DNA from: Naegleria gruberi
Taxonomy: Eukaryota
DNA length: 64,000 nucleotides
Assembly (NCBI GenBank): GCA_000004985.1
Contig: GG738891.1
Reading direction: 5' to 3' (one strand)
Shown here: one piece after another, positions 1 through 53,396 of the stretch
How the letters are laid out: every line of letters begins with the position of its first letter
Position numbering within the stretch: the stretch's first letter is position 1
The notes under the pieces: model-generated
What the model was told of the DNA's origin: nothing
Seen by the model: only the letters and a program-made list of their open reading frames with translations
Database searches by the model: none
Position numbers and translations under genes: made by a program

Positions 1-269
1 ACCCAAACCCAAACCCAAACCCAAACCCAAACCCAAACCCAAACCCAAACCCAACCCCAAACCCAAACCCAAACCCAAAACCCAAACCCAAACCCAAACC
101 CAAACCCAAACCCAAACCCAAACCCAAACCCAAACCCAAACCCAAACCCAAACCCAAACCCAAACCCAAACCCAAACCCAAACCCAAACCCAAACCCAAA
201 CCCAAACCCAAACCCAAACCCAAACCCAAACCCAAACCCAAACCCAAACCCAAACCCAAACCCCAAACC
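1..269. repeat. Telomeric repeat array at the scaffold start, C-strand (CCCAAA)n = G-strand TTTGGG
   Basis: Near-perfect CCCAAA hexamer tandem repeats begin at base 1, with sporadic CCCCAA and CCCAAAA variants near 51-60 and 74-80. The C-rich strand running 5'->3' on + at the left end is the expected orientation for a left chromosome terminus. The array ends in degenerate ...ccccaaacct before unique DNA. Confidence 0.9.
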
Positions 270-270
270 T

Positions 271-609
271 ATTTTTTTCTCCATTAGTATCAAACATGTT
301 TTGTATTATTAAAGGACAATTAGGTATTAATATTAAAAAAGAAAATAATTCTTGTTTAAGTTTACTAGCACAGTGATCATCATTTAAAATTTGTTTCCCA
401 AGAGCATTAATAGATTTAAATAATTTAAATTTATCTTCTTCCGTTTTACGTTTATTCCATTTATATTTGTTTAATATATCTCTTGGAATATTTGGTGTTG
501 ATGATGATGATGATGTTGATGTTGATGATGATGATGATGTTGATGATGATGATGATGTAGATGATGATGATGATGTTGATGATGATGTTGATGTTAATGA
601 TGGTGCCAT
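271..609 (-). CDS. ORF fragment: Ser/Thr-rich N-terminus followed by about 70 non-repetitive codons, reading without a stop into the telomere tract
   Basis: ATG at 609-607 sits in an A-rich context (aaaaaaaATGgca). My hand translation gives MAPSLTS(S/T)n...[53 protein letters not shown]... It continues in frame as FG FG through the TTTGGG repeats, with no stop before base 1. It is absent from the ORF track, presumably because it has no stop inside the window. Confidence 0.3.
497..600. repeat. Trinucleotide microsatellite (GAT)n with GTT interruptions
   Basis: The run gatgatgatgatgttgat... gives poly-Asp/Val on the + strand (track ORF 467..673) and poly-Ser/Thr (TCA/ACA) on the - strand. Confidence 0.85.
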
Positions 610-734
610 TTTTTTTATCAGCTCTCGCATTGTATTATCTGACGACATTTTTTCTTTCAATAAAAATGCGTAATAATAGTATTTGTATTTGTAATATTAA
701 ACAAAGCATAAATATTCATAAACTAATCTTACTA

Positions 735-784
735 NNNNNNNNNNNNNNNNNNNNNNNNNNNNNNNNNNNNNNNNNNNNNNNNNN
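735..784. other. Assembly gap (50 N)
   Basis: A run of n separates unique subtelomeric DNA from a second telomere-repeat block. Confidence 0.95.
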
Positions 785-1130
785 CCCAAACCCAAACCCA
801 AACCCAAACCCAAACCCAAACCCAAACCCAAACCCAAACCCAAACCCAAACCCAAACCCAAACCCAAACCCAAACCCAAACCCAAACCCAAACCCAAACC
901 CAAACCCAAACCCAAACCCAAACCCAAACCCAAACCCAAACCCAAACCCAAACCCAAACCCAAACCCAAACCCAAACCCAAACCCAAACCCAAACCCAAA
1001 CCCAAACCCAAACCCAAACCCAAACCCAAACCCAAACCCAAACCCAAACCCAAACCCAAACCCAAACCCAAACCCAAACCCAAACCCAAACCCAAACCCA
1101 AACCCAAACCCAAACCCAAACCCAAACCCA
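785..1130. repeat. Second (internal) telomere-repeat block (CCCAAA)n, same orientation as the terminal block
   Basis: Perfect CCCAAA repeats. At 1131-1170 they end in a different degenerate junction: cagaactaaaaatagaattcttctaaacccaaccttcaaaccctaacccaaaa, with CTAAACCC/TAACCC variants. Confidence 0.9.
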
Positions 1131-1634
1131 GAACTAAAAATAGAATTCTTCTAAACCCAACCTTCAAACCCTAACCCAAAATTATAAACTTATTCAAATA
1201 TCATTAAATTTTATATCATTCGATAGCTAATGATGAGTAGAACAATGTGGTATATTTAGTTTTTCAATTTATAAAATATTAACTTTTTAAATAGAGTCAG
1301 ATTAAAATTTCATAAATGAAACCATAGGAAGAATAATAATTTCGAAATCCTTTAATGAGATTATATAGTTTATATCATCATTAACAACATTTATAATCAC
1401 TTTCATATCAAATTTCAAAAGTTCATGTCTGTAGGTATAAAAGTATAGAGTGAAAAGGGTAGTTGTGAGGTACAATAGGTCAACTATAACTTTTGAGTTT
1501 CTCATCAAAACATATTAAATCCTGATATGAAAATGTTCCATTTGGAGTTGATACAAATAAACGGTGAGACGGGCAACGGGATGAACGGGATTCAGGCCGT
1601 TTCTTATTCTAAACGGGAGATTCTCTCCGCTTAA

Positions 1635-4600
1635 NNNNNNNNNNNNNNNNNNNNNNNNNNNNNNNNNNNNNNNNNNNNNNNNNNNNNNNNNNNNNNNNNN
1701 NNNNNNNNNNNNNNNNNNNNNNNNNNNNNNNNNNNNNNNNNNNNNNNNNNNNNNNNNNNNNNNNNNNNNNNNNNNNNNNNNNNNNNNNNNNNNNNNNNNN
1801 NNNNNNNNNNNNNNNNNNNNNNNNNNNNNNNNNNNNNNNNNNNNNNNNNNNNNNNNNNNNNNNNNNNNNNNNNNNNNNNNNNNNNNNNNNNNNNNNNNNN
1901 NNNNNNNNNNNNNNNNNNNNNNNNNNNNNNNNNNNNNNNNNNNNNNNNNNNNNNNNNNNNNNNNNNNNNNNNNNNNNNNNNNNNNNNNNNNNNNNNNNNN
2001 NNNNNNNNNNNNNNNNNNNNNNNNNNNNNNNNNNNNNNNNNNNNNNNNNNNNNNNNNNNNNNNNNNNNNNNNNNNNNNNNNNNNNNNNNNNNNNNNNNNN
2101 NNNNNNNNNNNNNNNNNNNNNNNNNNNNNNNNNNNNNNNNNNNNNNNNNNNNNNNNNNNNNNNNNNNNNNNNNNNNNNNNNNNNNNNNNNNNNNNNNNNN
2201 NNNNNNNNNNNNNNNNNNNNNNNNNNNNNNNNNNNNNNNNNNNNNNNNNNNNNNNNNNNNNNNNNNNNNNNNNNNNNNNNNNNNNNNNNNNNNNNNNNNN
2301 NNNNNNNNNNNNNNNNNNNNNNNNNNNNNNNNNNNNNNNNNNNNNNNNNNNNNNNNNNNNNNNNNNNNNNNNNNNNNNNNNNNNNNNNNNNNNNNNNNNN
2401 NNNNNNNNNNNNNNNNNNNNNNNNNNNNNNNNNNNNNNNNNNNNNNNNNNNNNNNNNNNNNNNNNNNNNNNNNNNNNNNNNNNNNNNNNNNNNNNNNNNN
2501 NNNNNNNNNNNNNNNNNNNNNNNNNNNNNNNNNNNNNNNNNNNNNNNNNNNNNNNNNNNNNNNNNNNNNNNNNNNNNNNNNNNNNNNNNNNNNNNNNNNN
2601 NNNNNNNNNNNNNNNNNNNNNNNNNNNNNNNNNNNNNNNNNNNNNNNNNNNNNNNNNNNNNNNNNNNNNNNNNNNNNNNNNNNNNNNNNNNNNNNNNNNN
2701 NNNNNNNNNNNNNNNNNNNNNNNNNNNNNNNNNNNNNNNNNNNNNNNNNNNNNNNNNNNNNNNNNNNNNNNNNNNNNNNNNNNNNNNNNNNNNNNNNNNN
2801 NNNNNNNNNNNNNNNNNNNNNNNNNNNNNNNNNNNNNNNNNNNNNNNNNNNNNNNNNNNNNNNNNNNNNNNNNNNNNNNNNNNNNNNNNNNNNNNNNNNN
2901 NNNNNNNNNNNNNNNNNNNNNNNNNNNNNNNNNNNNNNNNNNNNNNNNNNNNNNNNNNNNNNNNNNNNNNNNNNNNNNNNNNNNNNNNNNNNNNNNNNNN
3001 NNNNNNNNNNNNNNNNNNNNNNNNNNNNNNNNNNNNNNNNNNNNNNNNNNNNNNNNNNNNNNNNNNNNNNNNNNNNNNNNNNNNNNNNNNNNNNNNNNNN
3101 NNNNNNNNNNNNNNNNNNNNNNNNNNNNNNNNNNNNNNNNNNNNNNNNNNNNNNNNNNNNNNNNNNNNNNNNNNNNNNNNNNNNNNNNNNNNNNNNNNNN
3201 NNNNNNNNNNNNNNNNNNNNNNNNNNNNNNNNNNNNNNNNNNNNNNNNNNNNNNNNNNNNNNNNNNNNNNNNNNNNNNNNNNNNNNNNNNNNNNNNNNNN
3301 NNNNNNNNNNNNNNNNNNNNNNNNNNNNNNNNNNNNNNNNNNNNNNNNNNNNNNNNNNNNNNNNNNNNNNNNNNNNNNNNNNNNNNNNNNNNNNNNNNNN
3401 NNNNNNNNNNNNNNNNNNNNNNNNNNNNNNNNNNNNNNNNNNNNNNNNNNNNNNNNNNNNNNNNNNNNNNNNNNNNNNNNNNNNNNNNNNNNNNNNNNNN
3501 NNNNNNNNNNNNNNNNNNNNNNNNNNNNNNNNNNNNNNNNNNNNNNNNNNNNNNNNNNNNNNNNNNNNNNNNNNNNNNNNNNNNNNNNNNNNNNNNNNNN
3601 NNNNNNNNNNNNNNNNNNNNNNNNNNNNNNNNNNNNNNNNNNNNNNNNNNNNNNNNNNNNNNNNNNNNNNNNNNNNNNNNNNNNNNNNNNNNNNNNNNNN
3701 NNNNNNNNNNNNNNNNNNNNNNNNNNNNNNNNNNNNNNNNNNNNNNNNNNNNNNNNNNNNNNNNNNNNNNNNNNNNNNNNNNNNNNNNNNNNNNNNNNNN
3801 NNNNNNNNNNNNNNNNNNNNNNNNNNNNNNNNNNNNNNNNNNNNNNNNNNNNNNNNNNNNNNNNNNNNNNNNNNNNNNNNNNNNNNNNNNNNNNNNNNNN
3901 NNNNNNNNNNNNNNNNNNNNNNNNNNNNNNNNNNNNNNNNNNNNNNNNNNNNNNNNNNNNNNNNNNNNNNNNNNNNNNNNNNNNNNNNNNNNNNNNNNNN
4001 NNNNNNNNNNNNNNNNNNNNNNNNNNNNNNNNNNNNNNNNNNNNNNNNNNNNNNNNNNNNNNNNNNNNNNNNNNNNNNNNNNNNNNNNNNNNNNNNNNNN
4101 NNNNNNNNNNNNNNNNNNNNNNNNNNNNNNNNNNNNNNNNNNNNNNNNNNNNNNNNNNNNNNNNNNNNNNNNNNNNNNNNNNNNNNNNNNNNNNNNNNNN
4201 NNNNNNNNNNNNNNNNNNNNNNNNNNNNNNNNNNNNNNNNNNNNNNNNNNNNNNNNNNNNNNNNNNNNNNNNNNNNNNNNNNNNNNNNNNNNNNNNNNNN
4301 NNNNNNNNNNNNNNNNNNNNNNNNNNNNNNNNNNNNNNNNNNNNNNNNNNNNNNNNNNNNNNNNNNNNNNNNNNNNNNNNNNNNNNNNNNNNNNNNNNNN
4401 NNNNNNNNNNNNNNNNNNNNNNNNNNNNNNNNNNNNNNNNNNNNNNNNNNNNNNNNNNNNNNNNNNNNNNNNNNNNNNNNNNNNNNNNNNNNNNNNNNNN
4501 NNNNNNNNNNNNNNNNNNNNNNNNNNNNNNNNNNNNNNNNNNNNNNNNNNNNNNNNNNNNNNNNNNNNNNNNNNNNNNNNNNNNNNNNNNNNNNNNNNNN

Positions 4601-7600
4601 NNNNNNNNNNNNNNNNNNNNNNNNNNNNNNNNNNNNNNNNNNNNNNNNNNNNNNNNNNNNNNNNNNNNNNNNNNNNNNNNNNNNNNNNNNNNNNNNNNNN
4701 NNNNNNNNNNNNNNNNNNNNNNNNNNNNNNNNNNNNNNNNNNNNNNNNNNNNNNNNNNNNNNNNNNNNNNNNNNNNNNNNNNNNNNNNNNNNNNNNNNNN
4801 NNNNNNNNNNNNNNNNNNNNNNNNNNNNNNNNNNNNNNNNNNNNNNNNNNNNNNNNNNNNNNNNNNNNNNNNNNNNNNNNNNNNNNNNNNNNNNNNNNNN
4901 NNNNNNNNNNNNNNNNNNNNNNNNNNNNNNNNNNNNNNNNNNNNNNNNNNNNNNNNNNNNNNNNNNNNNNNNNNNNNNNNNNNNNNNNNNNNNNNNNNNN
5001 NNNNNNNNNNNNNNNNNNNNNNNNNNNNNNNNNNNNNNNNNNNNNNNNNNNNNNNNNNNNNNNNNNNNNNNNNNNNNNNNNNNNNNNNNNNNNNNNNNNN
5101 NNNNNNNNNNNNNNNNNNNNNNNNNNNNNNNNNNNNNNNNNNNNNNNNNNNNNNNNNNNNNNNNNNNNNNNNNNNNNNNNNNNNNNNNNNNNNNNNNNNN
5201 NNNNNNNNNNNNNNNNNNNNNNNNNNNNNNNNNNNNNNNNNNNNNNNNNNNNNNNNNNNNNNNNNNNNNNNNNNNNNNNNNNNNNNNNNNNNNNNNNNNN
5301 NNNNNNNNNNNNNNNNNNNNNNNNNNNNNNNNNNNNNNNNNNNNNNNNNNNNNNNNNNNNNNNNNNNNNNNNNNNNNNNNNNNNNNNNNNNNNNNNNNNN
5401 NNNNNNNNNNNNNNNNNNNNNNNNNNNNNNNNNNNNNNNNNNNNNNNNNNNNNNNNNNNNNNNNNNNNNNNNNNNNNNNNNNNNNNNNNNNNNNNNNNNN
5501 NNNNNNNNNNNNNNNNNNNNNNNNNNNNNNNNNNNNNNNNNNNNNNNNNNNNNNNNNNNNNNNNNNNNNNNNNNNNNNNNNNNNNNNNNNNNNNNNNNNN
5601 NNNNNNNNNNNNNNNNNNNNNNNNNNNNNNNNNNNNNNNNNNNNNNNNNNNNNNNNNNNNNNNNNNNNNNNNNNNNNNNNNNNNNNNNNNNNNNNNNNNN
5701 NNNNNNNNNNNNNNNNNNNNNNNNNNNNNNNNNNNNNNNNNNNNNNNNNNNNNNNNNNNNNNNNNNNNNNNNNNNNNNNNNNNNNNNNNNNNNNNNNNNN
5801 NNNNNNNNNNNNNNNNNNNNNNNNNNNNNNNNNNNNNNNNNNNNNNNNNNNNNNNNNNNNNNNNNNNNNNNNNNNNNNNNNNNNNNNNNNNNNNNNNNNN
5901 NNNNNNNNNNNNNNNNNNNNNNNNNNNNNNNNNNNNNNNNNNNNNNNNNNNNNNNNNNNNNNNNNNNNNNNNNNNNNNNNNNNNNNNNNNNNNNNNNNNN
6001 NNNNNNNNNNNNNNNNNNNNNNNNNNNNNNNNNNNNNNNNNNNNNNNNNNNNNNNNNNNNNNNNNNNNNNNNNNNNNNNNNNNNNNNNNNNNNNNNNNNN
6101 NNNNNNNNNNNNNNNNNNNNNNNNNNNNNNNNNNNNNNNNNNNNNNNNNNNNNNNNNNNNNNNNNNNNNNNNNNNNNNNNNNNNNNNNNNNNNNNNNNNN
6201 NNNNNNNNNNNNNNNNNNNNNNNNNNNNNNNNNNNNNNNNNNNNNNNNNNNNNNNNNNNNNNNNNNNNNNNNNNNNNNNNNNNNNNNNNNNNNNNNNNNN
6301 NNNNNNNNNNNNNNNNNNNNNNNNNNNNNNNNNNNNNNNNNNNNNNNNNNNNNNNNNNNNNNNNNNNNNNNNNNNNNNNNNNNNNNNNNNNNNNNNNNNN
6401 NNNNNNNNNNNNNNNNNNNNNNNNNNNNNNNNNNNNNNNNNNNNNNNNNNNNNNNNNNNNNNNNNNNNNNNNNNNNNNNNNNNNNNNNNNNNNNNNNNNN
6501 NNNNNNNNNNNNNNNNNNNNNNNNNNNNNNNNNNNNNNNNNNNNNNNNNNNNNNNNNNNNNNNNNNNNNNNNNNNNNNNNNNNNNNNNNNNNNNNNNNNN
6601 NNNNNNNNNNNNNNNNNNNNNNNNNNNNNNNNNNNNNNNNNNNNNNNNNNNNNNNNNNNNNNNNNNNNNNNNNNNNNNNNNNNNNNNNNNNNNNNNNNNN
6701 NNNNNNNNNNNNNNNNNNNNNNNNNNNNNNNNNNNNNNNNNNNNNNNNNNNNNNNNNNNNNNNNNNNNNNNNNNNNNNNNNNNNNNNNNNNNNNNNNNNN
6801 NNNNNNNNNNNNNNNNNNNNNNNNNNNNNNNNNNNNNNNNNNNNNNNNNNNNNNNNNNNNNNNNNNNNNNNNNNNNNNNNNNNNNNNNNNNNNNNNNNNN
6901 NNNNNNNNNNNNNNNNNNNNNNNNNNNNNNNNNNNNNNNNNNNNNNNNNNNNNNNNNNNNNNNNNNNNNNNNNNNNNNNNNNNNNNNNNNNNNNNNNNNN
7001 NNNNNNNNNNNNNNNNNNNNNNNNNNNNNNNNNNNNNNNNNNNNNNNNNNNNNNNNNNNNNNNNNNNNNNNNNNNNNNNNNNNNNNNNNNNNNNNNNNNN
7101 NNNNNNNNNNNNNNNNNNNNNNNNNNNNNNNNNNNNNNNNNNNNNNNNNNNNNNNNNNNNNNNNNNNNNNNNNNNNNNNNNNNNNNNNNNNNNNNNNNNN
7201 NNNNNNNNNNNNNNNNNNNNNNNNNNNNNNNNNNNNNNNNNNNNNNNNNNNNNNNNNNNNNNNNNNNNNNNNNNNNNNNNNNNNNNNNNNNNNNNNNNNN
7301 NNNNNNNNNNNNNNNNNNNNNNNNNNNNNNNNNNNNNNNNNNNNNNNNNNNNNNNNNNNNNNNNNNNNNNNNNNNNNNNNNNNNNNNNNNNNNNNNNNNN
7401 NNNNNNNNNNNNNNNNNNNNNNNNNNNNNNNNNNNNNNNNNNNNNNNNNNNNNNNNNNNNNNNNNNNNNNNNNNNNNNNNNNNNNNNNNNNNNNNNNNNN
7501 NNNNNNNNNNNNNNNNNNNNNNNNNNNNNNNNNNNNNNNNNNNNNNNNNNNNNNNNNNNNNNNNNNNNNNNNNNNNNNNNNNNNNNNNNNNNNNNNNNNN

Positions 7601-9763
7601 NNNNNNNNNNNNNNNNNNNNNNNNNNNNNNNNNNNNNNNNNNNNNNNNNNNNNNNNNNNNNNNNNNNNNNNNNNNNNNNNNNNNNNNNNNNNNNNNNNNN
7701 NNNNNNNNNNNNNNNNNNNNNNNNNNNNNNNNNNNNNNNNNNNNNNNNNNNNNNNNNNNNNNNNNNNNNNNNNNNNNNNNNNNNNNNNNNNNNNNNNNNN
7801 NNNNNNNNNNNNNNNNNNNNNNNNNNNNNNNNNNNNNNNNNNNNNNNNNNNNNNNNNNNNNNNNNNNNNNNNNNNNNNNNNNNNNNNNNNNNNNNNNNNN
7901 NNNNNNNNNNNNNNNNNNNNNNNNNNNNNNNNNNNNNNNNNNNNNNNNNNNNNNNNNNNNNNNNNNNNNNNNNNNNNNNNNNNNNNNNNNNNNNNNNNNN
8001 NNNNNNNNNNNNNNNNNNNNNNNNNNNNNNNNNNNNNNNNNNNNNNNNNNNNNNNNNNNNNNNNNNNNNNNNNNNNNNNNNNNNNNNNNNNNNNNNNNNN
8101 NNNNNNNNNNNNNNNNNNNNNNNNNNNNNNNNNNNNNNNNNNNNNNNNNNNNNNNNNNNNNNNNNNNNNNNNNNNNNNNNNNNNNNNNNNNNNNNNNNNN
8201 NNNNNNNNNNNNNNNNNNNNNNNNNNNNNNNNNNNNNNNNNNNNNNNNNNNNNNNNNNNNNNNNNNNNNNNNNNNNNNNNNNNNNNNNNNNNNNNNNNNN
8301 NNNNNNNNNNNNNNNNNNNNNNNNNNNNNNNNNNNNNNNNNNNNNNNNNNNNNNNNNNNNNNNNNNNNNNNNNNNNNNNNNNNNNNNNNNNNNNNNNNNN
8401 NNNNNNNNNNNNNNNNNNNNNNNNNNNNNNNNNNNNNNNNNNNNNNNNNNNNNNNNNNNNNNNNNNNNNNNNNNNNNNNNNNNNNNNNNNNNNNNNNNNN
8501 NNNNNNNNNNNNNNNNNNNNNNNNNNNNNNNNNNNNNNNNNNNNNNNNNNNNNNNNNNNNNNNNNNNNNNNNNNNNNNNNNNNNNNNNNNNNNNNNNNNN
8601 NNNNNNNNNNNNNNNNNNNNNNNNNNNNNNNNNNNNNNNNNNNNNNNNNNNNNNNNNNNNNNNNNNNNNNNNNNNNNNNNNNNNNNNNNNNNNNNNNNNN
8701 NNNNNNNNNNNNNNNNNNNNNNNNNNNNNNNNNNNNNNNNNNNNNNNNNNNNNNNNNNNNNNNNNNNNNNNNNNNNNNNNNNNNNNNNNNNNNNNNNNNN
8801 NNNNNNNNNNNNNNNNNNNNNNNNNNNNNNNNNNNNNNNNNNNNNNNNNNNNNNNNNNNNNNNNNNNNNNNNNNNNNNNNNNNNNNNNNNNNNNNNNNNN
8901 NNNNNNNNNNNNNNNNNNNNNNNNNNNNNNNNNNNNNNNNNNNNNNNNNNNNNNNNNNNNNNNNNNNNNNNNNNNNNNNNNNNNNNNNNNNNNNNNNNNN
9001 NNNNNNNNNNNNNNNNNNNNNNNNNNNNNNNNNNNNNNNNNNNNNNNNNNNNNNNNNNNNNNNNNNNNNNNNNNNNNNNNNNNNNNNNNNNNNNNNNNNN
9101 NNNNNNNNNNNNNNNNNNNNNNNNNNNNNNNNNNNNNNNNNNNNNNNNNNNNNNNNNNNNNNNNNNNNNNNNNNNNNNNNNNNNNNNNNNNNNNNNNNNN
9201 NNNNNNNNNNNNNNNNNNNNNNNNNNNNNNNNNNNNNNNNNNNNNNNNNNNNNNNNNNNNNNNNNNNNNNNNNNNNNNNNNNNNNNNNNNNNNNNNNNNN
9301 NNNNNNNNNNNNNNNNNNNNNNNNNNNNNNNNNNNNNNNNNNNNNNNNNNNNNNNNNNNNNNNNNNNNNNNNNNNNNNNNNNNNNNNNNNNNNNNNNNNN
9401 NNNNNNNNNNNNNNNNNNNNNNNNNNNNNNNNNNNNNNNNNNNNNNNNNNNNNNNNNNNNNNNNNNNNNNNNNNNNNNNNNNNNNNNNNNNNNNNNNNNN
9501 NNNNNNNNNNNNNNNNNNNNNNNNNNNNNNNNNNNNNNNNNNNNNNNNNNNNNNNNNNNNNNNNNNNNNNNNNNNNNNNNNNNNNNNNNNNNNNNNNNNN
9601 NNNNNNNNNNNNNNNNNNNNNNNNNNNNNNNNNNNNNNNNNNNNNNNNNNNNNNNNNNNNNNNNNNNNNNNNNNNNNNNNNNNNNNNNNNNNNNNNNNNN
9701 NNNNNNNNNNNNNNNNNNNNNNNNNNNNNNNNNNNNNNNNNNNNNNNNNNNNNNNNNNNNNNN
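1635..9763. other. Assembly gap (8129 N)
   Basis: N run. It is flanked on the left by a short GC-rich island (1561-1634, AACGGG repeated) and on the right by telomere repeats. Confidence 0.95.
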
Positions 9764-10183
9764 AACCCAAACCCAAACCCAAACCCAAACCCAAACCCAA
9801 ACCCAAACCCAAACCCAAACCCAAACCCAAACCCAAACCCAAACCCAAACCCAAACCCAAACCCAAACCCAAACCCAAACCCAAACCCAAACCCAAACCC
9901 AAACCCAAACCCAAACCCAAACCCAAACCCAAACCCAAACCCAAACCCAAACCCAAACCCAAACCCAAACCCAAACCCAAACCCAAACCCAAACCCAAAC
10001 CCAAACCCAAACCCAAACCCAAACCCAAACCCAAACCCAAACCCAAACCCAAACCCAAACCCAAACCCAAACCCAAACCCAAACCCAAACCCAAACCCAA
10101 ACCCAAACCCAAACCCAAACCCAAACCCAAACCCAAACCCAAACCCAAACCCAACCAACACCAACCCCAAACCCAAACCCAAA
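9764..10183. repeat. Third telomere-repeat block (CCCAAA)n, same orientation
   Basis: Perfect CCCAAA repeats end in a third, distinct degenerate junction (cccaaccaacaccaaccccaaacccaaacccaaag) followed by unique DNA. Confidence 0.9.
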
Positions 10184-10262
10184 GATTATAAGAAATATAA
10201 TCAATGATACGAATCTTCACTAAGTAATCTCTTAAATAACCCAAATAAATCAACTCTGAATC

Positions 10263-10645
10263 CTAACCAAACCCTTCTAATTTTGATACAAAAAAATTGC
10301 TTTTAGGAGCAATTGGAGAACAATATTTTTCTATTGTTAGAGGAGTTTGTATTATAGTATTATCATTTAATAATTGTAAATGTTGTTTTTTAATTGTTAT
10401 TAAATTATTTTGATATTTATGTATAAAATTAGTAAACAAATTATAACTTTCATTCCATTTAATATCTTCCAAAATACAATCATCTTCATTAATTTCTTTT
10501 ACCTTTCCTTGTCCACATTTTACCATAATGTTATTATTAAATATAATACTTTCAACACTAAAAAAAAAATCATAATATTGTTTAGTTTTTACTTTAATTA
10601 TATCCAAATTAGCTTTGTAATTACTATAAATAAAATCTTCTTTTA
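10263..10645 (-). CDS. 3' (C-terminal) part of a protein-coding gene of unknown function; the 5' part lies in the 13.9-kb gap
   Basis: Track ORF 10263..10607 extends in frame, without a stop, up to the gap edge at 10645. The track's M at 10607 is a TTG, so it is not a real start. The C-terminal sequence is ...KEDFIYSNYKANLDIIKVKTKQYYDFFFSVESIIFNNNIMVKCGQGKVKEINEDDCILEDIKWNESYNLF...SKLEGFG*. I find no recognisable domain. The stop lies about 80 bp from telomere block 3. Confidence 0.45.
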
Positions 10646-13600
10646 NNNNNNNNNNNNNNNNNNNNNNNNNNNNNNNNNNNNNNNNNNNNNNNNNNNNNNN
10701 NNNNNNNNNNNNNNNNNNNNNNNNNNNNNNNNNNNNNNNNNNNNNNNNNNNNNNNNNNNNNNNNNNNNNNNNNNNNNNNNNNNNNNNNNNNNNNNNNNNN
10801 NNNNNNNNNNNNNNNNNNNNNNNNNNNNNNNNNNNNNNNNNNNNNNNNNNNNNNNNNNNNNNNNNNNNNNNNNNNNNNNNNNNNNNNNNNNNNNNNNNNN
10901 NNNNNNNNNNNNNNNNNNNNNNNNNNNNNNNNNNNNNNNNNNNNNNNNNNNNNNNNNNNNNNNNNNNNNNNNNNNNNNNNNNNNNNNNNNNNNNNNNNNN
11001 NNNNNNNNNNNNNNNNNNNNNNNNNNNNNNNNNNNNNNNNNNNNNNNNNNNNNNNNNNNNNNNNNNNNNNNNNNNNNNNNNNNNNNNNNNNNNNNNNNNN
11101 NNNNNNNNNNNNNNNNNNNNNNNNNNNNNNNNNNNNNNNNNNNNNNNNNNNNNNNNNNNNNNNNNNNNNNNNNNNNNNNNNNNNNNNNNNNNNNNNNNNN
11201 NNNNNNNNNNNNNNNNNNNNNNNNNNNNNNNNNNNNNNNNNNNNNNNNNNNNNNNNNNNNNNNNNNNNNNNNNNNNNNNNNNNNNNNNNNNNNNNNNNNN
11301 NNNNNNNNNNNNNNNNNNNNNNNNNNNNNNNNNNNNNNNNNNNNNNNNNNNNNNNNNNNNNNNNNNNNNNNNNNNNNNNNNNNNNNNNNNNNNNNNNNNN
11401 NNNNNNNNNNNNNNNNNNNNNNNNNNNNNNNNNNNNNNNNNNNNNNNNNNNNNNNNNNNNNNNNNNNNNNNNNNNNNNNNNNNNNNNNNNNNNNNNNNNN
11501 NNNNNNNNNNNNNNNNNNNNNNNNNNNNNNNNNNNNNNNNNNNNNNNNNNNNNNNNNNNNNNNNNNNNNNNNNNNNNNNNNNNNNNNNNNNNNNNNNNNN
11601 NNNNNNNNNNNNNNNNNNNNNNNNNNNNNNNNNNNNNNNNNNNNNNNNNNNNNNNNNNNNNNNNNNNNNNNNNNNNNNNNNNNNNNNNNNNNNNNNNNNN
11701 NNNNNNNNNNNNNNNNNNNNNNNNNNNNNNNNNNNNNNNNNNNNNNNNNNNNNNNNNNNNNNNNNNNNNNNNNNNNNNNNNNNNNNNNNNNNNNNNNNNN
11801 NNNNNNNNNNNNNNNNNNNNNNNNNNNNNNNNNNNNNNNNNNNNNNNNNNNNNNNNNNNNNNNNNNNNNNNNNNNNNNNNNNNNNNNNNNNNNNNNNNNN
11901 NNNNNNNNNNNNNNNNNNNNNNNNNNNNNNNNNNNNNNNNNNNNNNNNNNNNNNNNNNNNNNNNNNNNNNNNNNNNNNNNNNNNNNNNNNNNNNNNNNNN
12001 NNNNNNNNNNNNNNNNNNNNNNNNNNNNNNNNNNNNNNNNNNNNNNNNNNNNNNNNNNNNNNNNNNNNNNNNNNNNNNNNNNNNNNNNNNNNNNNNNNNN
12101 NNNNNNNNNNNNNNNNNNNNNNNNNNNNNNNNNNNNNNNNNNNNNNNNNNNNNNNNNNNNNNNNNNNNNNNNNNNNNNNNNNNNNNNNNNNNNNNNNNNN
12201 NNNNNNNNNNNNNNNNNNNNNNNNNNNNNNNNNNNNNNNNNNNNNNNNNNNNNNNNNNNNNNNNNNNNNNNNNNNNNNNNNNNNNNNNNNNNNNNNNNNN
12301 NNNNNNNNNNNNNNNNNNNNNNNNNNNNNNNNNNNNNNNNNNNNNNNNNNNNNNNNNNNNNNNNNNNNNNNNNNNNNNNNNNNNNNNNNNNNNNNNNNNN
12401 NNNNNNNNNNNNNNNNNNNNNNNNNNNNNNNNNNNNNNNNNNNNNNNNNNNNNNNNNNNNNNNNNNNNNNNNNNNNNNNNNNNNNNNNNNNNNNNNNNNN
12501 NNNNNNNNNNNNNNNNNNNNNNNNNNNNNNNNNNNNNNNNNNNNNNNNNNNNNNNNNNNNNNNNNNNNNNNNNNNNNNNNNNNNNNNNNNNNNNNNNNNN
12601 NNNNNNNNNNNNNNNNNNNNNNNNNNNNNNNNNNNNNNNNNNNNNNNNNNNNNNNNNNNNNNNNNNNNNNNNNNNNNNNNNNNNNNNNNNNNNNNNNNNN
12701 NNNNNNNNNNNNNNNNNNNNNNNNNNNNNNNNNNNNNNNNNNNNNNNNNNNNNNNNNNNNNNNNNNNNNNNNNNNNNNNNNNNNNNNNNNNNNNNNNNNN
12801 NNNNNNNNNNNNNNNNNNNNNNNNNNNNNNNNNNNNNNNNNNNNNNNNNNNNNNNNNNNNNNNNNNNNNNNNNNNNNNNNNNNNNNNNNNNNNNNNNNNN
12901 NNNNNNNNNNNNNNNNNNNNNNNNNNNNNNNNNNNNNNNNNNNNNNNNNNNNNNNNNNNNNNNNNNNNNNNNNNNNNNNNNNNNNNNNNNNNNNNNNNNN
13001 NNNNNNNNNNNNNNNNNNNNNNNNNNNNNNNNNNNNNNNNNNNNNNNNNNNNNNNNNNNNNNNNNNNNNNNNNNNNNNNNNNNNNNNNNNNNNNNNNNNN
13101 NNNNNNNNNNNNNNNNNNNNNNNNNNNNNNNNNNNNNNNNNNNNNNNNNNNNNNNNNNNNNNNNNNNNNNNNNNNNNNNNNNNNNNNNNNNNNNNNNNNN
13201 NNNNNNNNNNNNNNNNNNNNNNNNNNNNNNNNNNNNNNNNNNNNNNNNNNNNNNNNNNNNNNNNNNNNNNNNNNNNNNNNNNNNNNNNNNNNNNNNNNNN
13301 NNNNNNNNNNNNNNNNNNNNNNNNNNNNNNNNNNNNNNNNNNNNNNNNNNNNNNNNNNNNNNNNNNNNNNNNNNNNNNNNNNNNNNNNNNNNNNNNNNNN
13401 NNNNNNNNNNNNNNNNNNNNNNNNNNNNNNNNNNNNNNNNNNNNNNNNNNNNNNNNNNNNNNNNNNNNNNNNNNNNNNNNNNNNNNNNNNNNNNNNNNNN
13501 NNNNNNNNNNNNNNNNNNNNNNNNNNNNNNNNNNNNNNNNNNNNNNNNNNNNNNNNNNNNNNNNNNNNNNNNNNNNNNNNNNNNNNNNNNNNNNNNNNNN

Positions 13601-16600
13601 NNNNNNNNNNNNNNNNNNNNNNNNNNNNNNNNNNNNNNNNNNNNNNNNNNNNNNNNNNNNNNNNNNNNNNNNNNNNNNNNNNNNNNNNNNNNNNNNNNNN
13701 NNNNNNNNNNNNNNNNNNNNNNNNNNNNNNNNNNNNNNNNNNNNNNNNNNNNNNNNNNNNNNNNNNNNNNNNNNNNNNNNNNNNNNNNNNNNNNNNNNNN
13801 NNNNNNNNNNNNNNNNNNNNNNNNNNNNNNNNNNNNNNNNNNNNNNNNNNNNNNNNNNNNNNNNNNNNNNNNNNNNNNNNNNNNNNNNNNNNNNNNNNNN
13901 NNNNNNNNNNNNNNNNNNNNNNNNNNNNNNNNNNNNNNNNNNNNNNNNNNNNNNNNNNNNNNNNNNNNNNNNNNNNNNNNNNNNNNNNNNNNNNNNNNNN
14001 NNNNNNNNNNNNNNNNNNNNNNNNNNNNNNNNNNNNNNNNNNNNNNNNNNNNNNNNNNNNNNNNNNNNNNNNNNNNNNNNNNNNNNNNNNNNNNNNNNNN
14101 NNNNNNNNNNNNNNNNNNNNNNNNNNNNNNNNNNNNNNNNNNNNNNNNNNNNNNNNNNNNNNNNNNNNNNNNNNNNNNNNNNNNNNNNNNNNNNNNNNNN
14201 NNNNNNNNNNNNNNNNNNNNNNNNNNNNNNNNNNNNNNNNNNNNNNNNNNNNNNNNNNNNNNNNNNNNNNNNNNNNNNNNNNNNNNNNNNNNNNNNNNNN
14301 NNNNNNNNNNNNNNNNNNNNNNNNNNNNNNNNNNNNNNNNNNNNNNNNNNNNNNNNNNNNNNNNNNNNNNNNNNNNNNNNNNNNNNNNNNNNNNNNNNNN
14401 NNNNNNNNNNNNNNNNNNNNNNNNNNNNNNNNNNNNNNNNNNNNNNNNNNNNNNNNNNNNNNNNNNNNNNNNNNNNNNNNNNNNNNNNNNNNNNNNNNNN
14501 NNNNNNNNNNNNNNNNNNNNNNNNNNNNNNNNNNNNNNNNNNNNNNNNNNNNNNNNNNNNNNNNNNNNNNNNNNNNNNNNNNNNNNNNNNNNNNNNNNNN
14601 NNNNNNNNNNNNNNNNNNNNNNNNNNNNNNNNNNNNNNNNNNNNNNNNNNNNNNNNNNNNNNNNNNNNNNNNNNNNNNNNNNNNNNNNNNNNNNNNNNNN
14701 NNNNNNNNNNNNNNNNNNNNNNNNNNNNNNNNNNNNNNNNNNNNNNNNNNNNNNNNNNNNNNNNNNNNNNNNNNNNNNNNNNNNNNNNNNNNNNNNNNNN
14801 NNNNNNNNNNNNNNNNNNNNNNNNNNNNNNNNNNNNNNNNNNNNNNNNNNNNNNNNNNNNNNNNNNNNNNNNNNNNNNNNNNNNNNNNNNNNNNNNNNNN
14901 NNNNNNNNNNNNNNNNNNNNNNNNNNNNNNNNNNNNNNNNNNNNNNNNNNNNNNNNNNNNNNNNNNNNNNNNNNNNNNNNNNNNNNNNNNNNNNNNNNNN
15001 NNNNNNNNNNNNNNNNNNNNNNNNNNNNNNNNNNNNNNNNNNNNNNNNNNNNNNNNNNNNNNNNNNNNNNNNNNNNNNNNNNNNNNNNNNNNNNNNNNNN
15101 NNNNNNNNNNNNNNNNNNNNNNNNNNNNNNNNNNNNNNNNNNNNNNNNNNNNNNNNNNNNNNNNNNNNNNNNNNNNNNNNNNNNNNNNNNNNNNNNNNNN
15201 NNNNNNNNNNNNNNNNNNNNNNNNNNNNNNNNNNNNNNNNNNNNNNNNNNNNNNNNNNNNNNNNNNNNNNNNNNNNNNNNNNNNNNNNNNNNNNNNNNNN
15301 NNNNNNNNNNNNNNNNNNNNNNNNNNNNNNNNNNNNNNNNNNNNNNNNNNNNNNNNNNNNNNNNNNNNNNNNNNNNNNNNNNNNNNNNNNNNNNNNNNNN
15401 NNNNNNNNNNNNNNNNNNNNNNNNNNNNNNNNNNNNNNNNNNNNNNNNNNNNNNNNNNNNNNNNNNNNNNNNNNNNNNNNNNNNNNNNNNNNNNNNNNNN
15501 NNNNNNNNNNNNNNNNNNNNNNNNNNNNNNNNNNNNNNNNNNNNNNNNNNNNNNNNNNNNNNNNNNNNNNNNNNNNNNNNNNNNNNNNNNNNNNNNNNNN
15601 NNNNNNNNNNNNNNNNNNNNNNNNNNNNNNNNNNNNNNNNNNNNNNNNNNNNNNNNNNNNNNNNNNNNNNNNNNNNNNNNNNNNNNNNNNNNNNNNNNNN
15701 NNNNNNNNNNNNNNNNNNNNNNNNNNNNNNNNNNNNNNNNNNNNNNNNNNNNNNNNNNNNNNNNNNNNNNNNNNNNNNNNNNNNNNNNNNNNNNNNNNNN
15801 NNNNNNNNNNNNNNNNNNNNNNNNNNNNNNNNNNNNNNNNNNNNNNNNNNNNNNNNNNNNNNNNNNNNNNNNNNNNNNNNNNNNNNNNNNNNNNNNNNNN
15901 NNNNNNNNNNNNNNNNNNNNNNNNNNNNNNNNNNNNNNNNNNNNNNNNNNNNNNNNNNNNNNNNNNNNNNNNNNNNNNNNNNNNNNNNNNNNNNNNNNNN
16001 NNNNNNNNNNNNNNNNNNNNNNNNNNNNNNNNNNNNNNNNNNNNNNNNNNNNNNNNNNNNNNNNNNNNNNNNNNNNNNNNNNNNNNNNNNNNNNNNNNNN
16101 NNNNNNNNNNNNNNNNNNNNNNNNNNNNNNNNNNNNNNNNNNNNNNNNNNNNNNNNNNNNNNNNNNNNNNNNNNNNNNNNNNNNNNNNNNNNNNNNNNNN
16201 NNNNNNNNNNNNNNNNNNNNNNNNNNNNNNNNNNNNNNNNNNNNNNNNNNNNNNNNNNNNNNNNNNNNNNNNNNNNNNNNNNNNNNNNNNNNNNNNNNNN
16301 NNNNNNNNNNNNNNNNNNNNNNNNNNNNNNNNNNNNNNNNNNNNNNNNNNNNNNNNNNNNNNNNNNNNNNNNNNNNNNNNNNNNNNNNNNNNNNNNNNNN
16401 NNNNNNNNNNNNNNNNNNNNNNNNNNNNNNNNNNNNNNNNNNNNNNNNNNNNNNNNNNNNNNNNNNNNNNNNNNNNNNNNNNNNNNNNNNNNNNNNNNNN
16501 NNNNNNNNNNNNNNNNNNNNNNNNNNNNNNNNNNNNNNNNNNNNNNNNNNNNNNNNNNNNNNNNNNNNNNNNNNNNNNNNNNNNNNNNNNNNNNNNNNNN

Positions 16601-19600
16601 NNNNNNNNNNNNNNNNNNNNNNNNNNNNNNNNNNNNNNNNNNNNNNNNNNNNNNNNNNNNNNNNNNNNNNNNNNNNNNNNNNNNNNNNNNNNNNNNNNNN
16701 NNNNNNNNNNNNNNNNNNNNNNNNNNNNNNNNNNNNNNNNNNNNNNNNNNNNNNNNNNNNNNNNNNNNNNNNNNNNNNNNNNNNNNNNNNNNNNNNNNNN
16801 NNNNNNNNNNNNNNNNNNNNNNNNNNNNNNNNNNNNNNNNNNNNNNNNNNNNNNNNNNNNNNNNNNNNNNNNNNNNNNNNNNNNNNNNNNNNNNNNNNNN
16901 NNNNNNNNNNNNNNNNNNNNNNNNNNNNNNNNNNNNNNNNNNNNNNNNNNNNNNNNNNNNNNNNNNNNNNNNNNNNNNNNNNNNNNNNNNNNNNNNNNNN
17001 NNNNNNNNNNNNNNNNNNNNNNNNNNNNNNNNNNNNNNNNNNNNNNNNNNNNNNNNNNNNNNNNNNNNNNNNNNNNNNNNNNNNNNNNNNNNNNNNNNNN
17101 NNNNNNNNNNNNNNNNNNNNNNNNNNNNNNNNNNNNNNNNNNNNNNNNNNNNNNNNNNNNNNNNNNNNNNNNNNNNNNNNNNNNNNNNNNNNNNNNNNNN
17201 NNNNNNNNNNNNNNNNNNNNNNNNNNNNNNNNNNNNNNNNNNNNNNNNNNNNNNNNNNNNNNNNNNNNNNNNNNNNNNNNNNNNNNNNNNNNNNNNNNNN
17301 NNNNNNNNNNNNNNNNNNNNNNNNNNNNNNNNNNNNNNNNNNNNNNNNNNNNNNNNNNNNNNNNNNNNNNNNNNNNNNNNNNNNNNNNNNNNNNNNNNNN
17401 NNNNNNNNNNNNNNNNNNNNNNNNNNNNNNNNNNNNNNNNNNNNNNNNNNNNNNNNNNNNNNNNNNNNNNNNNNNNNNNNNNNNNNNNNNNNNNNNNNNN
17501 NNNNNNNNNNNNNNNNNNNNNNNNNNNNNNNNNNNNNNNNNNNNNNNNNNNNNNNNNNNNNNNNNNNNNNNNNNNNNNNNNNNNNNNNNNNNNNNNNNNN
17601 NNNNNNNNNNNNNNNNNNNNNNNNNNNNNNNNNNNNNNNNNNNNNNNNNNNNNNNNNNNNNNNNNNNNNNNNNNNNNNNNNNNNNNNNNNNNNNNNNNNN
17701 NNNNNNNNNNNNNNNNNNNNNNNNNNNNNNNNNNNNNNNNNNNNNNNNNNNNNNNNNNNNNNNNNNNNNNNNNNNNNNNNNNNNNNNNNNNNNNNNNNNN
17801 NNNNNNNNNNNNNNNNNNNNNNNNNNNNNNNNNNNNNNNNNNNNNNNNNNNNNNNNNNNNNNNNNNNNNNNNNNNNNNNNNNNNNNNNNNNNNNNNNNNN
17901 NNNNNNNNNNNNNNNNNNNNNNNNNNNNNNNNNNNNNNNNNNNNNNNNNNNNNNNNNNNNNNNNNNNNNNNNNNNNNNNNNNNNNNNNNNNNNNNNNNNN
18001 NNNNNNNNNNNNNNNNNNNNNNNNNNNNNNNNNNNNNNNNNNNNNNNNNNNNNNNNNNNNNNNNNNNNNNNNNNNNNNNNNNNNNNNNNNNNNNNNNNNN
18101 NNNNNNNNNNNNNNNNNNNNNNNNNNNNNNNNNNNNNNNNNNNNNNNNNNNNNNNNNNNNNNNNNNNNNNNNNNNNNNNNNNNNNNNNNNNNNNNNNNNN
18201 NNNNNNNNNNNNNNNNNNNNNNNNNNNNNNNNNNNNNNNNNNNNNNNNNNNNNNNNNNNNNNNNNNNNNNNNNNNNNNNNNNNNNNNNNNNNNNNNNNNN
18301 NNNNNNNNNNNNNNNNNNNNNNNNNNNNNNNNNNNNNNNNNNNNNNNNNNNNNNNNNNNNNNNNNNNNNNNNNNNNNNNNNNNNNNNNNNNNNNNNNNNN
18401 NNNNNNNNNNNNNNNNNNNNNNNNNNNNNNNNNNNNNNNNNNNNNNNNNNNNNNNNNNNNNNNNNNNNNNNNNNNNNNNNNNNNNNNNNNNNNNNNNNNN
18501 NNNNNNNNNNNNNNNNNNNNNNNNNNNNNNNNNNNNNNNNNNNNNNNNNNNNNNNNNNNNNNNNNNNNNNNNNNNNNNNNNNNNNNNNNNNNNNNNNNNN
18601 NNNNNNNNNNNNNNNNNNNNNNNNNNNNNNNNNNNNNNNNNNNNNNNNNNNNNNNNNNNNNNNNNNNNNNNNNNNNNNNNNNNNNNNNNNNNNNNNNNNN
18701 NNNNNNNNNNNNNNNNNNNNNNNNNNNNNNNNNNNNNNNNNNNNNNNNNNNNNNNNNNNNNNNNNNNNNNNNNNNNNNNNNNNNNNNNNNNNNNNNNNNN
18801 NNNNNNNNNNNNNNNNNNNNNNNNNNNNNNNNNNNNNNNNNNNNNNNNNNNNNNNNNNNNNNNNNNNNNNNNNNNNNNNNNNNNNNNNNNNNNNNNNNNN
18901 NNNNNNNNNNNNNNNNNNNNNNNNNNNNNNNNNNNNNNNNNNNNNNNNNNNNNNNNNNNNNNNNNNNNNNNNNNNNNNNNNNNNNNNNNNNNNNNNNNNN
19001 NNNNNNNNNNNNNNNNNNNNNNNNNNNNNNNNNNNNNNNNNNNNNNNNNNNNNNNNNNNNNNNNNNNNNNNNNNNNNNNNNNNNNNNNNNNNNNNNNNNN
19101 NNNNNNNNNNNNNNNNNNNNNNNNNNNNNNNNNNNNNNNNNNNNNNNNNNNNNNNNNNNNNNNNNNNNNNNNNNNNNNNNNNNNNNNNNNNNNNNNNNNN
19201 NNNNNNNNNNNNNNNNNNNNNNNNNNNNNNNNNNNNNNNNNNNNNNNNNNNNNNNNNNNNNNNNNNNNNNNNNNNNNNNNNNNNNNNNNNNNNNNNNNNN
19301 NNNNNNNNNNNNNNNNNNNNNNNNNNNNNNNNNNNNNNNNNNNNNNNNNNNNNNNNNNNNNNNNNNNNNNNNNNNNNNNNNNNNNNNNNNNNNNNNNNNN
19401 NNNNNNNNNNNNNNNNNNNNNNNNNNNNNNNNNNNNNNNNNNNNNNNNNNNNNNNNNNNNNNNNNNNNNNNNNNNNNNNNNNNNNNNNNNNNNNNNNNNN
19501 NNNNNNNNNNNNNNNNNNNNNNNNNNNNNNNNNNNNNNNNNNNNNNNNNNNNNNNNNNNNNNNNNNNNNNNNNNNNNNNNNNNNNNNNNNNNNNNNNNNN

Positions 19601-22600
19601 NNNNNNNNNNNNNNNNNNNNNNNNNNNNNNNNNNNNNNNNNNNNNNNNNNNNNNNNNNNNNNNNNNNNNNNNNNNNNNNNNNNNNNNNNNNNNNNNNNNN
19701 NNNNNNNNNNNNNNNNNNNNNNNNNNNNNNNNNNNNNNNNNNNNNNNNNNNNNNNNNNNNNNNNNNNNNNNNNNNNNNNNNNNNNNNNNNNNNNNNNNNN
19801 NNNNNNNNNNNNNNNNNNNNNNNNNNNNNNNNNNNNNNNNNNNNNNNNNNNNNNNNNNNNNNNNNNNNNNNNNNNNNNNNNNNNNNNNNNNNNNNNNNNN
19901 NNNNNNNNNNNNNNNNNNNNNNNNNNNNNNNNNNNNNNNNNNNNNNNNNNNNNNNNNNNNNNNNNNNNNNNNNNNNNNNNNNNNNNNNNNNNNNNNNNNN
20001 NNNNNNNNNNNNNNNNNNNNNNNNNNNNNNNNNNNNNNNNNNNNNNNNNNNNNNNNNNNNNNNNNNNNNNNNNNNNNNNNNNNNNNNNNNNNNNNNNNNN
20101 NNNNNNNNNNNNNNNNNNNNNNNNNNNNNNNNNNNNNNNNNNNNNNNNNNNNNNNNNNNNNNNNNNNNNNNNNNNNNNNNNNNNNNNNNNNNNNNNNNNN
20201 NNNNNNNNNNNNNNNNNNNNNNNNNNNNNNNNNNNNNNNNNNNNNNNNNNNNNNNNNNNNNNNNNNNNNNNNNNNNNNNNNNNNNNNNNNNNNNNNNNNN
20301 NNNNNNNNNNNNNNNNNNNNNNNNNNNNNNNNNNNNNNNNNNNNNNNNNNNNNNNNNNNNNNNNNNNNNNNNNNNNNNNNNNNNNNNNNNNNNNNNNNNN
20401 NNNNNNNNNNNNNNNNNNNNNNNNNNNNNNNNNNNNNNNNNNNNNNNNNNNNNNNNNNNNNNNNNNNNNNNNNNNNNNNNNNNNNNNNNNNNNNNNNNNN
20501 NNNNNNNNNNNNNNNNNNNNNNNNNNNNNNNNNNNNNNNNNNNNNNNNNNNNNNNNNNNNNNNNNNNNNNNNNNNNNNNNNNNNNNNNNNNNNNNNNNNN
20601 NNNNNNNNNNNNNNNNNNNNNNNNNNNNNNNNNNNNNNNNNNNNNNNNNNNNNNNNNNNNNNNNNNNNNNNNNNNNNNNNNNNNNNNNNNNNNNNNNNNN
20701 NNNNNNNNNNNNNNNNNNNNNNNNNNNNNNNNNNNNNNNNNNNNNNNNNNNNNNNNNNNNNNNNNNNNNNNNNNNNNNNNNNNNNNNNNNNNNNNNNNNN
20801 NNNNNNNNNNNNNNNNNNNNNNNNNNNNNNNNNNNNNNNNNNNNNNNNNNNNNNNNNNNNNNNNNNNNNNNNNNNNNNNNNNNNNNNNNNNNNNNNNNNN
20901 NNNNNNNNNNNNNNNNNNNNNNNNNNNNNNNNNNNNNNNNNNNNNNNNNNNNNNNNNNNNNNNNNNNNNNNNNNNNNNNNNNNNNNNNNNNNNNNNNNNN
21001 NNNNNNNNNNNNNNNNNNNNNNNNNNNNNNNNNNNNNNNNNNNNNNNNNNNNNNNNNNNNNNNNNNNNNNNNNNNNNNNNNNNNNNNNNNNNNNNNNNNN
21101 NNNNNNNNNNNNNNNNNNNNNNNNNNNNNNNNNNNNNNNNNNNNNNNNNNNNNNNNNNNNNNNNNNNNNNNNNNNNNNNNNNNNNNNNNNNNNNNNNNNN
21201 NNNNNNNNNNNNNNNNNNNNNNNNNNNNNNNNNNNNNNNNNNNNNNNNNNNNNNNNNNNNNNNNNNNNNNNNNNNNNNNNNNNNNNNNNNNNNNNNNNNN
21301 NNNNNNNNNNNNNNNNNNNNNNNNNNNNNNNNNNNNNNNNNNNNNNNNNNNNNNNNNNNNNNNNNNNNNNNNNNNNNNNNNNNNNNNNNNNNNNNNNNNN
21401 NNNNNNNNNNNNNNNNNNNNNNNNNNNNNNNNNNNNNNNNNNNNNNNNNNNNNNNNNNNNNNNNNNNNNNNNNNNNNNNNNNNNNNNNNNNNNNNNNNNN
21501 NNNNNNNNNNNNNNNNNNNNNNNNNNNNNNNNNNNNNNNNNNNNNNNNNNNNNNNNNNNNNNNNNNNNNNNNNNNNNNNNNNNNNNNNNNNNNNNNNNNN
21601 NNNNNNNNNNNNNNNNNNNNNNNNNNNNNNNNNNNNNNNNNNNNNNNNNNNNNNNNNNNNNNNNNNNNNNNNNNNNNNNNNNNNNNNNNNNNNNNNNNNN
21701 NNNNNNNNNNNNNNNNNNNNNNNNNNNNNNNNNNNNNNNNNNNNNNNNNNNNNNNNNNNNNNNNNNNNNNNNNNNNNNNNNNNNNNNNNNNNNNNNNNNN
21801 NNNNNNNNNNNNNNNNNNNNNNNNNNNNNNNNNNNNNNNNNNNNNNNNNNNNNNNNNNNNNNNNNNNNNNNNNNNNNNNNNNNNNNNNNNNNNNNNNNNN
21901 NNNNNNNNNNNNNNNNNNNNNNNNNNNNNNNNNNNNNNNNNNNNNNNNNNNNNNNNNNNNNNNNNNNNNNNNNNNNNNNNNNNNNNNNNNNNNNNNNNNN
22001 NNNNNNNNNNNNNNNNNNNNNNNNNNNNNNNNNNNNNNNNNNNNNNNNNNNNNNNNNNNNNNNNNNNNNNNNNNNNNNNNNNNNNNNNNNNNNNNNNNNN
22101 NNNNNNNNNNNNNNNNNNNNNNNNNNNNNNNNNNNNNNNNNNNNNNNNNNNNNNNNNNNNNNNNNNNNNNNNNNNNNNNNNNNNNNNNNNNNNNNNNNNN
22201 NNNNNNNNNNNNNNNNNNNNNNNNNNNNNNNNNNNNNNNNNNNNNNNNNNNNNNNNNNNNNNNNNNNNNNNNNNNNNNNNNNNNNNNNNNNNNNNNNNNN
22301 NNNNNNNNNNNNNNNNNNNNNNNNNNNNNNNNNNNNNNNNNNNNNNNNNNNNNNNNNNNNNNNNNNNNNNNNNNNNNNNNNNNNNNNNNNNNNNNNNNNN
22401 NNNNNNNNNNNNNNNNNNNNNNNNNNNNNNNNNNNNNNNNNNNNNNNNNNNNNNNNNNNNNNNNNNNNNNNNNNNNNNNNNNNNNNNNNNNNNNNNNNNN
22501 NNNNNNNNNNNNNNNNNNNNNNNNNNNNNNNNNNNNNNNNNNNNNNNNNNNNNNNNNNNNNNNNNNNNNNNNNNNNNNNNNNNNNNNNNNNNNNNNNNNN

Positions 22601-52652: not shown

Positions 52653-53396
52653 AACGAAGGAAACAAATCATCGTCATCATTAATTTCATGAGTGTCAGCT
52701 TGTTGGTGTTCATACAAGGTGCAACTGAGTTTTTATACTCACATTCTCTTATTTTAGATTTTCATTACAACTCACAATTATTTTTAATTTTAGTAATGGA
52801 TGATTGTTAGGTACTTGGCCACGCTCACGTTTATTTTTAATTTTCAAGCATAATCAAAGTCCTTGGACAAGAATCGAACACGTGGTTTCTTCCTTGACAA
52901 TCTACAGTGTTTGACCTTTCGAATAATGGTGTGTACCATTAAAATTGTCTAACATTTTAAAAGTAGGCAAAAAAAAATGCCTCCATTTGCTTCTCACTAC
53001 AACCTGCTTCATTCAATAAATCATTTATAAAATTATGAGTACATACAATATGAAATAAATCATCAACTTGTTTAAATGTGAAATACATTCTAATTCTTTA
53101 ATTATTAATACTTCAATGTTCTAAACATTTTCTACATCTTTTCCGATGTTGTTACATCATTCCATGATGAGGAAGTAAAAAAATTCAATTTCAGTCCAAT
53201 AAAGTTAAACAAGTAATGTAATTGGTATGTATCGAATTTCTCGACCAATAAACACTAAATAAACACATGAGGTGGAATACCAGCAACTAATATTAATCTT
53301 CGTGTTCTAATAATTTAATGACTAACAACAAACGAGCGTGAAAATATTTATTTAAAATGAAAAGATTTCACAAGAATCAGGGTCAATGATGGTCAA

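Follow-up and report, generated by a model that had tools for sequence, protein, structure and literature searches.

Three telomere-repeat blocks at the left end of a Naegleria gruberi draft scaffold are probably separate junction contigs laid in line

Within the first 10 kb or so of a draft scaffold of Naegleria gruberi stand three blocks of the telomere-type repeat (CCCAAA)n, all pointing the same way, and we think it probable that these are three telomere/subtelomere junction contigs from different DNA molecules, which the scaffolder put head to tail. The nested layout is, in other words, most likely a product of scaffolding and not a chromosome structure. A first-pass annotation of this DNA had set two alternatives side by side, a genuine nested architecture and separate chromosome ends joined via N padding; our analysis speaks for the second and against the first, given that sequence to the left is lacking for every array, the contigs are the size of reads, the contig ends before the gaps are free of repeat, the flanks are unrelated and the same scaffold carries a scaffolding error elsewhere. 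The absent left junctions, the unrelated flanks and the error are directly observed, as are the arrays themselves, the contig boundaries and the organism.

The whole stretch of DNA that we analysed (the window, 64,000 nucleotides) is the leftmost 64 kb of a scaffold of 339,217 bp in the N. gruberi NEG-M draft (ACER00000000), and its GC content is 33%. An exact-sequence look-up covering ten long open reading frames (ORFs) of the window returned an ORF at 30277-32361 (plus strand, 695 aa) with 100% identity to N. gruberi XP_002673296.1/EFC40552.1 (NAEGRDRAFT_71477), while another at 36661-37149 (minus strand) clusters with N. gruberi XP_002673364.1, which belongs to the same 339,217-bp record. 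In addition, a Sel1-repeat ORF in the window finds its best match in N. gruberi, in this case a paralogous one. A dictyostelid source, to which the AT-richness and the EGF repeats might have pointed, is rejected on the strength of the exact protein match. The draft was reportedly sequenced from plasmid and fosmid Sanger libraries to about 8x coverage and put together with the JAZZ assembler. It is the JGI draft of 2010, whose 1977 contigs are arranged in 784 scaffolds (PMC6831594 Table 1).

Tandem Repeats Finder places the arrays at 1-269 (array A; 44.5 copies, 97% match), 785-1130 (array B; 57.7 copies, 100% match) and 9764-10183 (array C; 70.3 copies, 98% match), all with a period of 6 and exactly at the coordinates first reported for them. 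Array A, which opens both the scaffold and the window, contains a few variant units (two of CCCCAAA and one each of CCCAA and CCCAAAA). Across the 41,169 non-N bases the hexamer CCCAAA occurs 179 times against the roughly 9 expected from base composition, with 167 of these occurrences inside the three arrays and the remaining 12 dispersed, one pair apart, as single copies; the enrichment of the arrays over chance is real. The C-rich strand is on the plus strand in all three, and each array lies to the left of its own flank, which bears out the earlier statement that they are oriented as a left chromosome end would be. As for the repeat itself, TTTGGG is the candidate telomere unit of N. gruberi, put forward from a search in which genome assemblies were scanned for minisatellites that are terminal and correctly oriented (Fulneckova et al. 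2013, PMC3622300). Since this is the candidate unit of the very species concerned, the three blocks can, on their sequence, be regarded as its genuine telomere repeat. The remark in the first-pass annotation that TTTGGG matches no well-known lineage has accordingly been overtaken, the unit having already been assigned in print. Among the papers searched, no second one connects Naegleria with TTTGGG.

The way in which these arrays are embedded is central to our argument. Contig A (1-734, 734 bp) is followed by a gap of 50 N (735-784), contig B (785-1634, 850 bp) by one of 8129 N (1635-9763, the size being an estimate) and contig C (9764-10645, 882 bp) by one of 13895 N (10646-24540), so that the arrays are indeed separated by N gaps, as had been noted. 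The first substantial sequence of the scaffold comes only at 24541-29932, where a receptor gene with EGF/teneurin-like repeat, REJ and PKD features lies on the plus strand, itself containing a gap of 654 N at 26198-26851. In total, Ns fill 22,074 of the 24,540 positions up to the end of the third gap (90%), and the ‘nested architecture’ therefore depends wholly on scaffolding. Each of the three small contigs consists of 269-420 bp of array and then 462-504 bp of flank, and each is about as long as one Sanger read, which means that the length of the arrays is limited by that of the reads.

Arrays B and C open at the first base after a run of Ns, and each is therefore terminal within its own contig. 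The contigs that precede these gaps (1-734 and 785-1634) have right ends, …cataaactaatcttacta and …gattctctccgcttaa respectively, that are ordinary unique sequence with no CCCAAA at all, and it follows that no array has a sequenced left junction. For every array just one junction, that on the inner side, has been sequenced. Such a pattern marks a terminal tract; were a tract truly interstitial and too long for reads to span, the contig to its left would normally end in repeat too. In contiguous sequence nothing except repeat lies distal to the junction of A, B or C, just as in a terminal array, with the proviso that this holds at the level of the contig. An interstitial array would have contiguous non-telomeric DNA on both sides, and for arrays B and C the left side consists of Ns. 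To call B and C interstitial, as was done at first, is correct in scaffold coordinates only, each being in fact the start of a contig after a run of Ns. Against our reading of the contigs as coming from separate molecules, it must be said that the 8129-N gap could conceal a left junction of array C.

The flanks differ among themselves, and so do the junctions. In contig A, the array ending …CCCCAAACCT gives way nearly abruptly at 269/270 to a flank beginning ATTTTTTT (the junction is also written as …CCCCAAACCT followed by ATTTTTTTCTCC), and the flank (270-734, 465 bp, GC 0.25) runs to a unique, AT-rich end. Flank B (1131-1634, 504 bp, GC 0.29) also has a non-telomeric end. Degenerate remnants resembling telomere repeat occur in it at 1153-1181, and at about 1560-1634 ACGGG recurs within a patch of higher GC. 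At junction C there are variant units at 10150-10169 and, within the flank (10184-10645, 462 bp, GC 0.21), telomere-like remnants at 10238-10275. The earlier description of a degenerate junction at each array is thus borne out by the remnants and variants of B and C, and fails for the near-abrupt A. With their degenerate repeats, junctions B and C have the look of natural junctions of some age; a healed break would be in keeping with junction A, which is abrupt and lies within an open frame. The frame in question, on the minus strand of flank A (648 to 271), has 126 codons from its ATG, is rich in Ser and Thr and enters the array without a stop codon. A second ORF, on the minus strand of flank C (10263-10607), has a frame that stays open to the gap edge at 10643.

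A search of 5.8 billion proteins yielded no homologue of the flank A or the flank C ORF, the ORFs of the small contigs showed no Pfam domain, and HMMER with the flank A ORF against 1.84 billion representatives returned compositional Ser/Thr matches only. Positions 1-1634 have no match in Rfam to a structured RNA, and flank B, the one flank tested in this respect, matches neither E. coli nor plasmid sequence. When flanks A, B and C were compared with each other and with the window (blastn, word size 7), the only matches were telomere-like remnants and low-complexity sequence. The flanks are unrelated, and this argues against a tandem subtelomeric element of the Y' type, in which a homologous element would come after each tract.

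How far can the order of pieces in this scaffold be trusted? A self-comparison of the window gives a rather clear answer from its other end, where the remaining gaps of about 50 N (54087-54137, 51 N, and 62349-62398, 50 N) enclose a block of 8.2 kb at 54138-62348. Over 568 bp, the segment 53519-54086 matches the reverse complement of 61781-62348 with 100% identity, and over 192 bp, 54138-54329 matches that of 62403-62593 with 99.5% identity; the matched segments are the very contig ends, four in all, that border the two gaps. Both ends of the block overlap their neighbours only after it is flipped, from which we conclude that it is in the wrong orientation or, less likely, that it marks an inversion polymorphism. 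Judged from these sequences, the gaps of about 50 N represent overlaps that the assembler missed, and 50 N appears to be a floor value for gap size. The 50 N between contigs A and B form another gap of this kind. On the simplest reading, the scaffolder's estimate placed A and B at essentially one position, and for two contigs placed together in this way, alternative ends fit better than consecutive segments.

A plausible course of events can be proposed. Sequence made up purely of the repeat cannot be told apart between one chromosome end and another, so that pure-repeat reads would be interchangeable; because of this, and because subtelomeres assemble poorly, the assembler may have been left with three small contigs of telomere plus flank. 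These the scaffolder could only order linearly, padding them with gaps of estimated or floor-value size. The contigs might represent different chromosome ends brought together by false links, in which case subtelomeric repeats could sit in the gaps, or they might represent alternative ends of homologues or of subclones on a single arm, brought together by true links from large-insert clones. The route by which the scaffolder chained the contigs, and which of the junctions, if any, is a real arm end, are points that we infer.

The second of these situations deserves particular attention. Here the three contigs would be alternative ends of one arm, from homologues or subclones with truncation at a different point in each and subsequent healing by telomerase, and nothing but their arrangement in series would be artificial; we regard this as a tentative possibility. 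It is one form of the broader statement that the arrays do not lie in series on one molecule, and biologically it is the more interesting form. Telomere addition inside a gene would be expected to give just what is seen at junction A, a near-abrupt switch with a 126-codon ORF running into the array without a stop codon, and by a rough estimate an open frame of 126 codons at 25% GC is rare by chance; however, the ORF has neither the homologue nor the domain that would mark a gene truncation. Judged from the coordinates and the library sizes, clones of about 35-40 kb could tie all three small contigs to the 27-kb contig. The scaffolder must, after all, have needed some link for each contig, and true fosmid links, in tying all three to the arm, would favour variants of homologues over unrelated chromosome ends. 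Naegleria has, moreover, been reported to be mainly a heterozygous diploid with aneuploidy (PMC9928731). Two homologues would, on the other hand, be too few for three variants unless the culture was mixed. A further difficulty is that reads from a longer homologue, if there were one, should extend flanks B and C leftward, and nothing has been assembled there.

A genuinely nested architecture, with a terminal array and two same-orientation interstitial arrays on one molecule, which could be left over from successive healing events or come from subtelomeric duplications, strikes us as improbable. Internal telomeric blocks are present in many genome assemblies (PMC3622300), and the gaps do allow for unseen left junctions, at least ahead of array C, but apart from the order in the scaffold and the shared orientation of the arrays there is no positive support. 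To the left of every array sequence is lacking; contig A ends in unique DNA at a 50-N floor gap, where a read crossing into array B would be expected; the flanks are unrelated, unlike Y'-type repeats; all arrays and contigs are read-sized; and the scaffold is demonstrably unreliable at its gaps of about 50 N. A very improbable explanation, in our view, is that one or more of the contigs, and especially A, stems from a chimeric clone or read, in which a fragment of telomere repeat was ligated to an unrelated genomic fragment in the library. Junction A, abrupt, within an open reading frame and devoid of degenerate repeats, is what such an accident would produce, and contig A is read-sized and joins nothing else. 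Yet one would expect a chimera's unique part to have been assembled with its true locus, flank B (the only flank tested) shows no vector or E. coli sequence, and all three contigs have the telomere-proper orientation, for which the chance under random ligation is 1 in 8. Separate junction contigs laid in line by the scaffolder are thus the reading that we prefer.

Weak context for this preference comes from metagenomes, where TTTGGG arrays in gap-free sequence behave as simple termini. A scan of metagenome contigs for (CCCAAA)6 gave at least 120 loci; among the matches listed, many lie internally in GC-rich contigs as short microsatellites, none matches the window and none is N. gruberi. Among the same listed matches, AT-rich contigs (GC ≤0.40) carry 17 terminal arrays in the telomere-proper orientation as against 2 in the wrong one, with a single project, JAESGV01, supplying 13 of the 17. 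A second, separate array (at least 4 units) further in was seen in none of the 19 gap-free contigs with a correctly oriented terminal TTTGGG array among the matches listed, which between them offer 116.6 kb of flank, although these come from organisms other than N. gruberi and long arrays collapse in short-read assemblies.

What, then, should be made of these arrays? Their biological weight is small: repeat and species had been linked in print before, and what underlies the nested layout is 22 kb of Ns. For those who use the assembly, the practical message is that the initial 24 kb or so of the scaffold should not be taken as subtelomere structure, that the same scaffold carries an 8.2-kb block in the wrong orientation, and that internal telomere blocks counted in the N. 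gruberi draft are at least partly artefacts. The abutment of array A on an ORF without a stop codon is suggestive, but only with confirmation from long reads would it be relevant to chromosome healing in Naegleria. Should the scaffold order be true after all, which we doubt strongly, a terminal TTTGGG array and two long same-orientation interstitial arrays would lie within 10 kb, and this would speak of repeated terminal loss, healing (once inside a coding sequence) and re-extension by the capture of new distal DNA.

Several known systems offer themselves for comparison. In the Y'/X subtelomeres of yeast, internal TG1-3 tracts occur that are short, lie between homologous tandem Y' copies and are found in contiguous sequence; tracts of the same orientation would nest inward from a terminal tract much as the scaffold suggests, whereas here the flanks are unrelated and nothing is contiguous. 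Chromosome healing by de novo telomere addition is known from the subtelomeric deletions of Plasmodium falciparum and from human terminal deletions, and junction A, which switches abruptly from repeat to an ORF with no stop codon, bears a certain likeness to it; the gene truncation there is, however, a candidate only, and junctions B and C look old and natural. The telomeres of Paramecium, which mix TTGGGG and TTTGGG units, make TTTGGG an established telomerase product in another lineage, but the arrays described here are almost pure TTTGGG and their host is a heterolobosean, not a ciliate. Closer to home, the N. gruberi candidate telomere of Fulneckova et al. 2013 (PMC3622300) concerns the same species, the same unit, the same public assembly and the same kind of evidence from terminal position and orientation as used here; that work names the unit only, and the three stacked junction contigs at the present scaffold end are not described in it. 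The false internal telomere blocks of draft assemblies, which represent a kind of assembly artefact and no family in the biological sense, share with our case arrays that sit at a contig edge beside Ns with one sequenced junction each, a likeness that extends to the read-sized contigs and the orientation error in the present scaffold.

The 8.2-kb block at 54138-62348 lies between two gaps of about 50 Ns. The contig ends that flank both gaps carry reverse-complement copies of one another (spans 53519-54329 and 61781-62593; one match is 568 bp long and 100% identical, the other covers 192 bp with 99.5% identity), and once the block is flipped it overlaps its neighbours at both ends. It is therefore most likely that the block is mis-oriented in the scaffold, or else that we are looking at an inversion polymorphism. 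A further inverted similarity, between 53076-53280 and 63797-64000, is diverged (75.6% over 225 bp, with the match cut by the window end), and this is probably a paralogous fragment close to the PARP/WGR-like gene at 62552-63679 on the minus strand.

A 654-N gap interrupts the large plus-strand receptor-like gene at 24541-29932, whose product combines teneurin-type EGF repeats with REJ and PKD domains and has, as read from the translation, a hydrophobic stretch at its C-terminal end. The EGF repeats make up tandem DNA repeats of 240/362 bp with 70-80% identity, and it is probably these that break the assembly here. Contig B, which carries the second telomere block, could stop at the border of a repeat element at which assembly halted: its final ~75 bp (1560-1634) have a GC content of 0.44-0.48, versus 0.16-0.36 across the remaining flank, and contain four ACGGG motifs, with no match in Rfam, E. 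coli and plasmid comparisons.

Next to the first telomere block, a Ser/Thr-rich ORF of 126 codons (271-648, minus strand) has no stop codon before the array, so that its frame enters the repeat directly. This could be a gene truncated through de novo telomere addition; searches of protein collections and Pfam found neither homologue nor domain for it, only Ser/Thr compositional matches.

Among the metagenome matches listed, at least 13 AT-rich contigs of the WGS project JAESGV01 (L006, L028, L030, L041, L053, L076, L077, L081, L082, L083, L101, L114 and L119) terminate in TTTGGG arrays in the orientation proper to telomeres, some with CCCCAA-type variants close to the junction. Several have ORFs of ~700-1250 codons for which the standard genetic code suffices, and the terminal arrays point to a eukaryote having TTTGGG-type telomeres. 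In L083, a Ty3/gypsy-type pol ORF of 1208 aa (139-3762, plus strand; RT, RNase H and integrase) begins immediately at the inner edge of the array, and is a retrotransposon located at the telomere junction.
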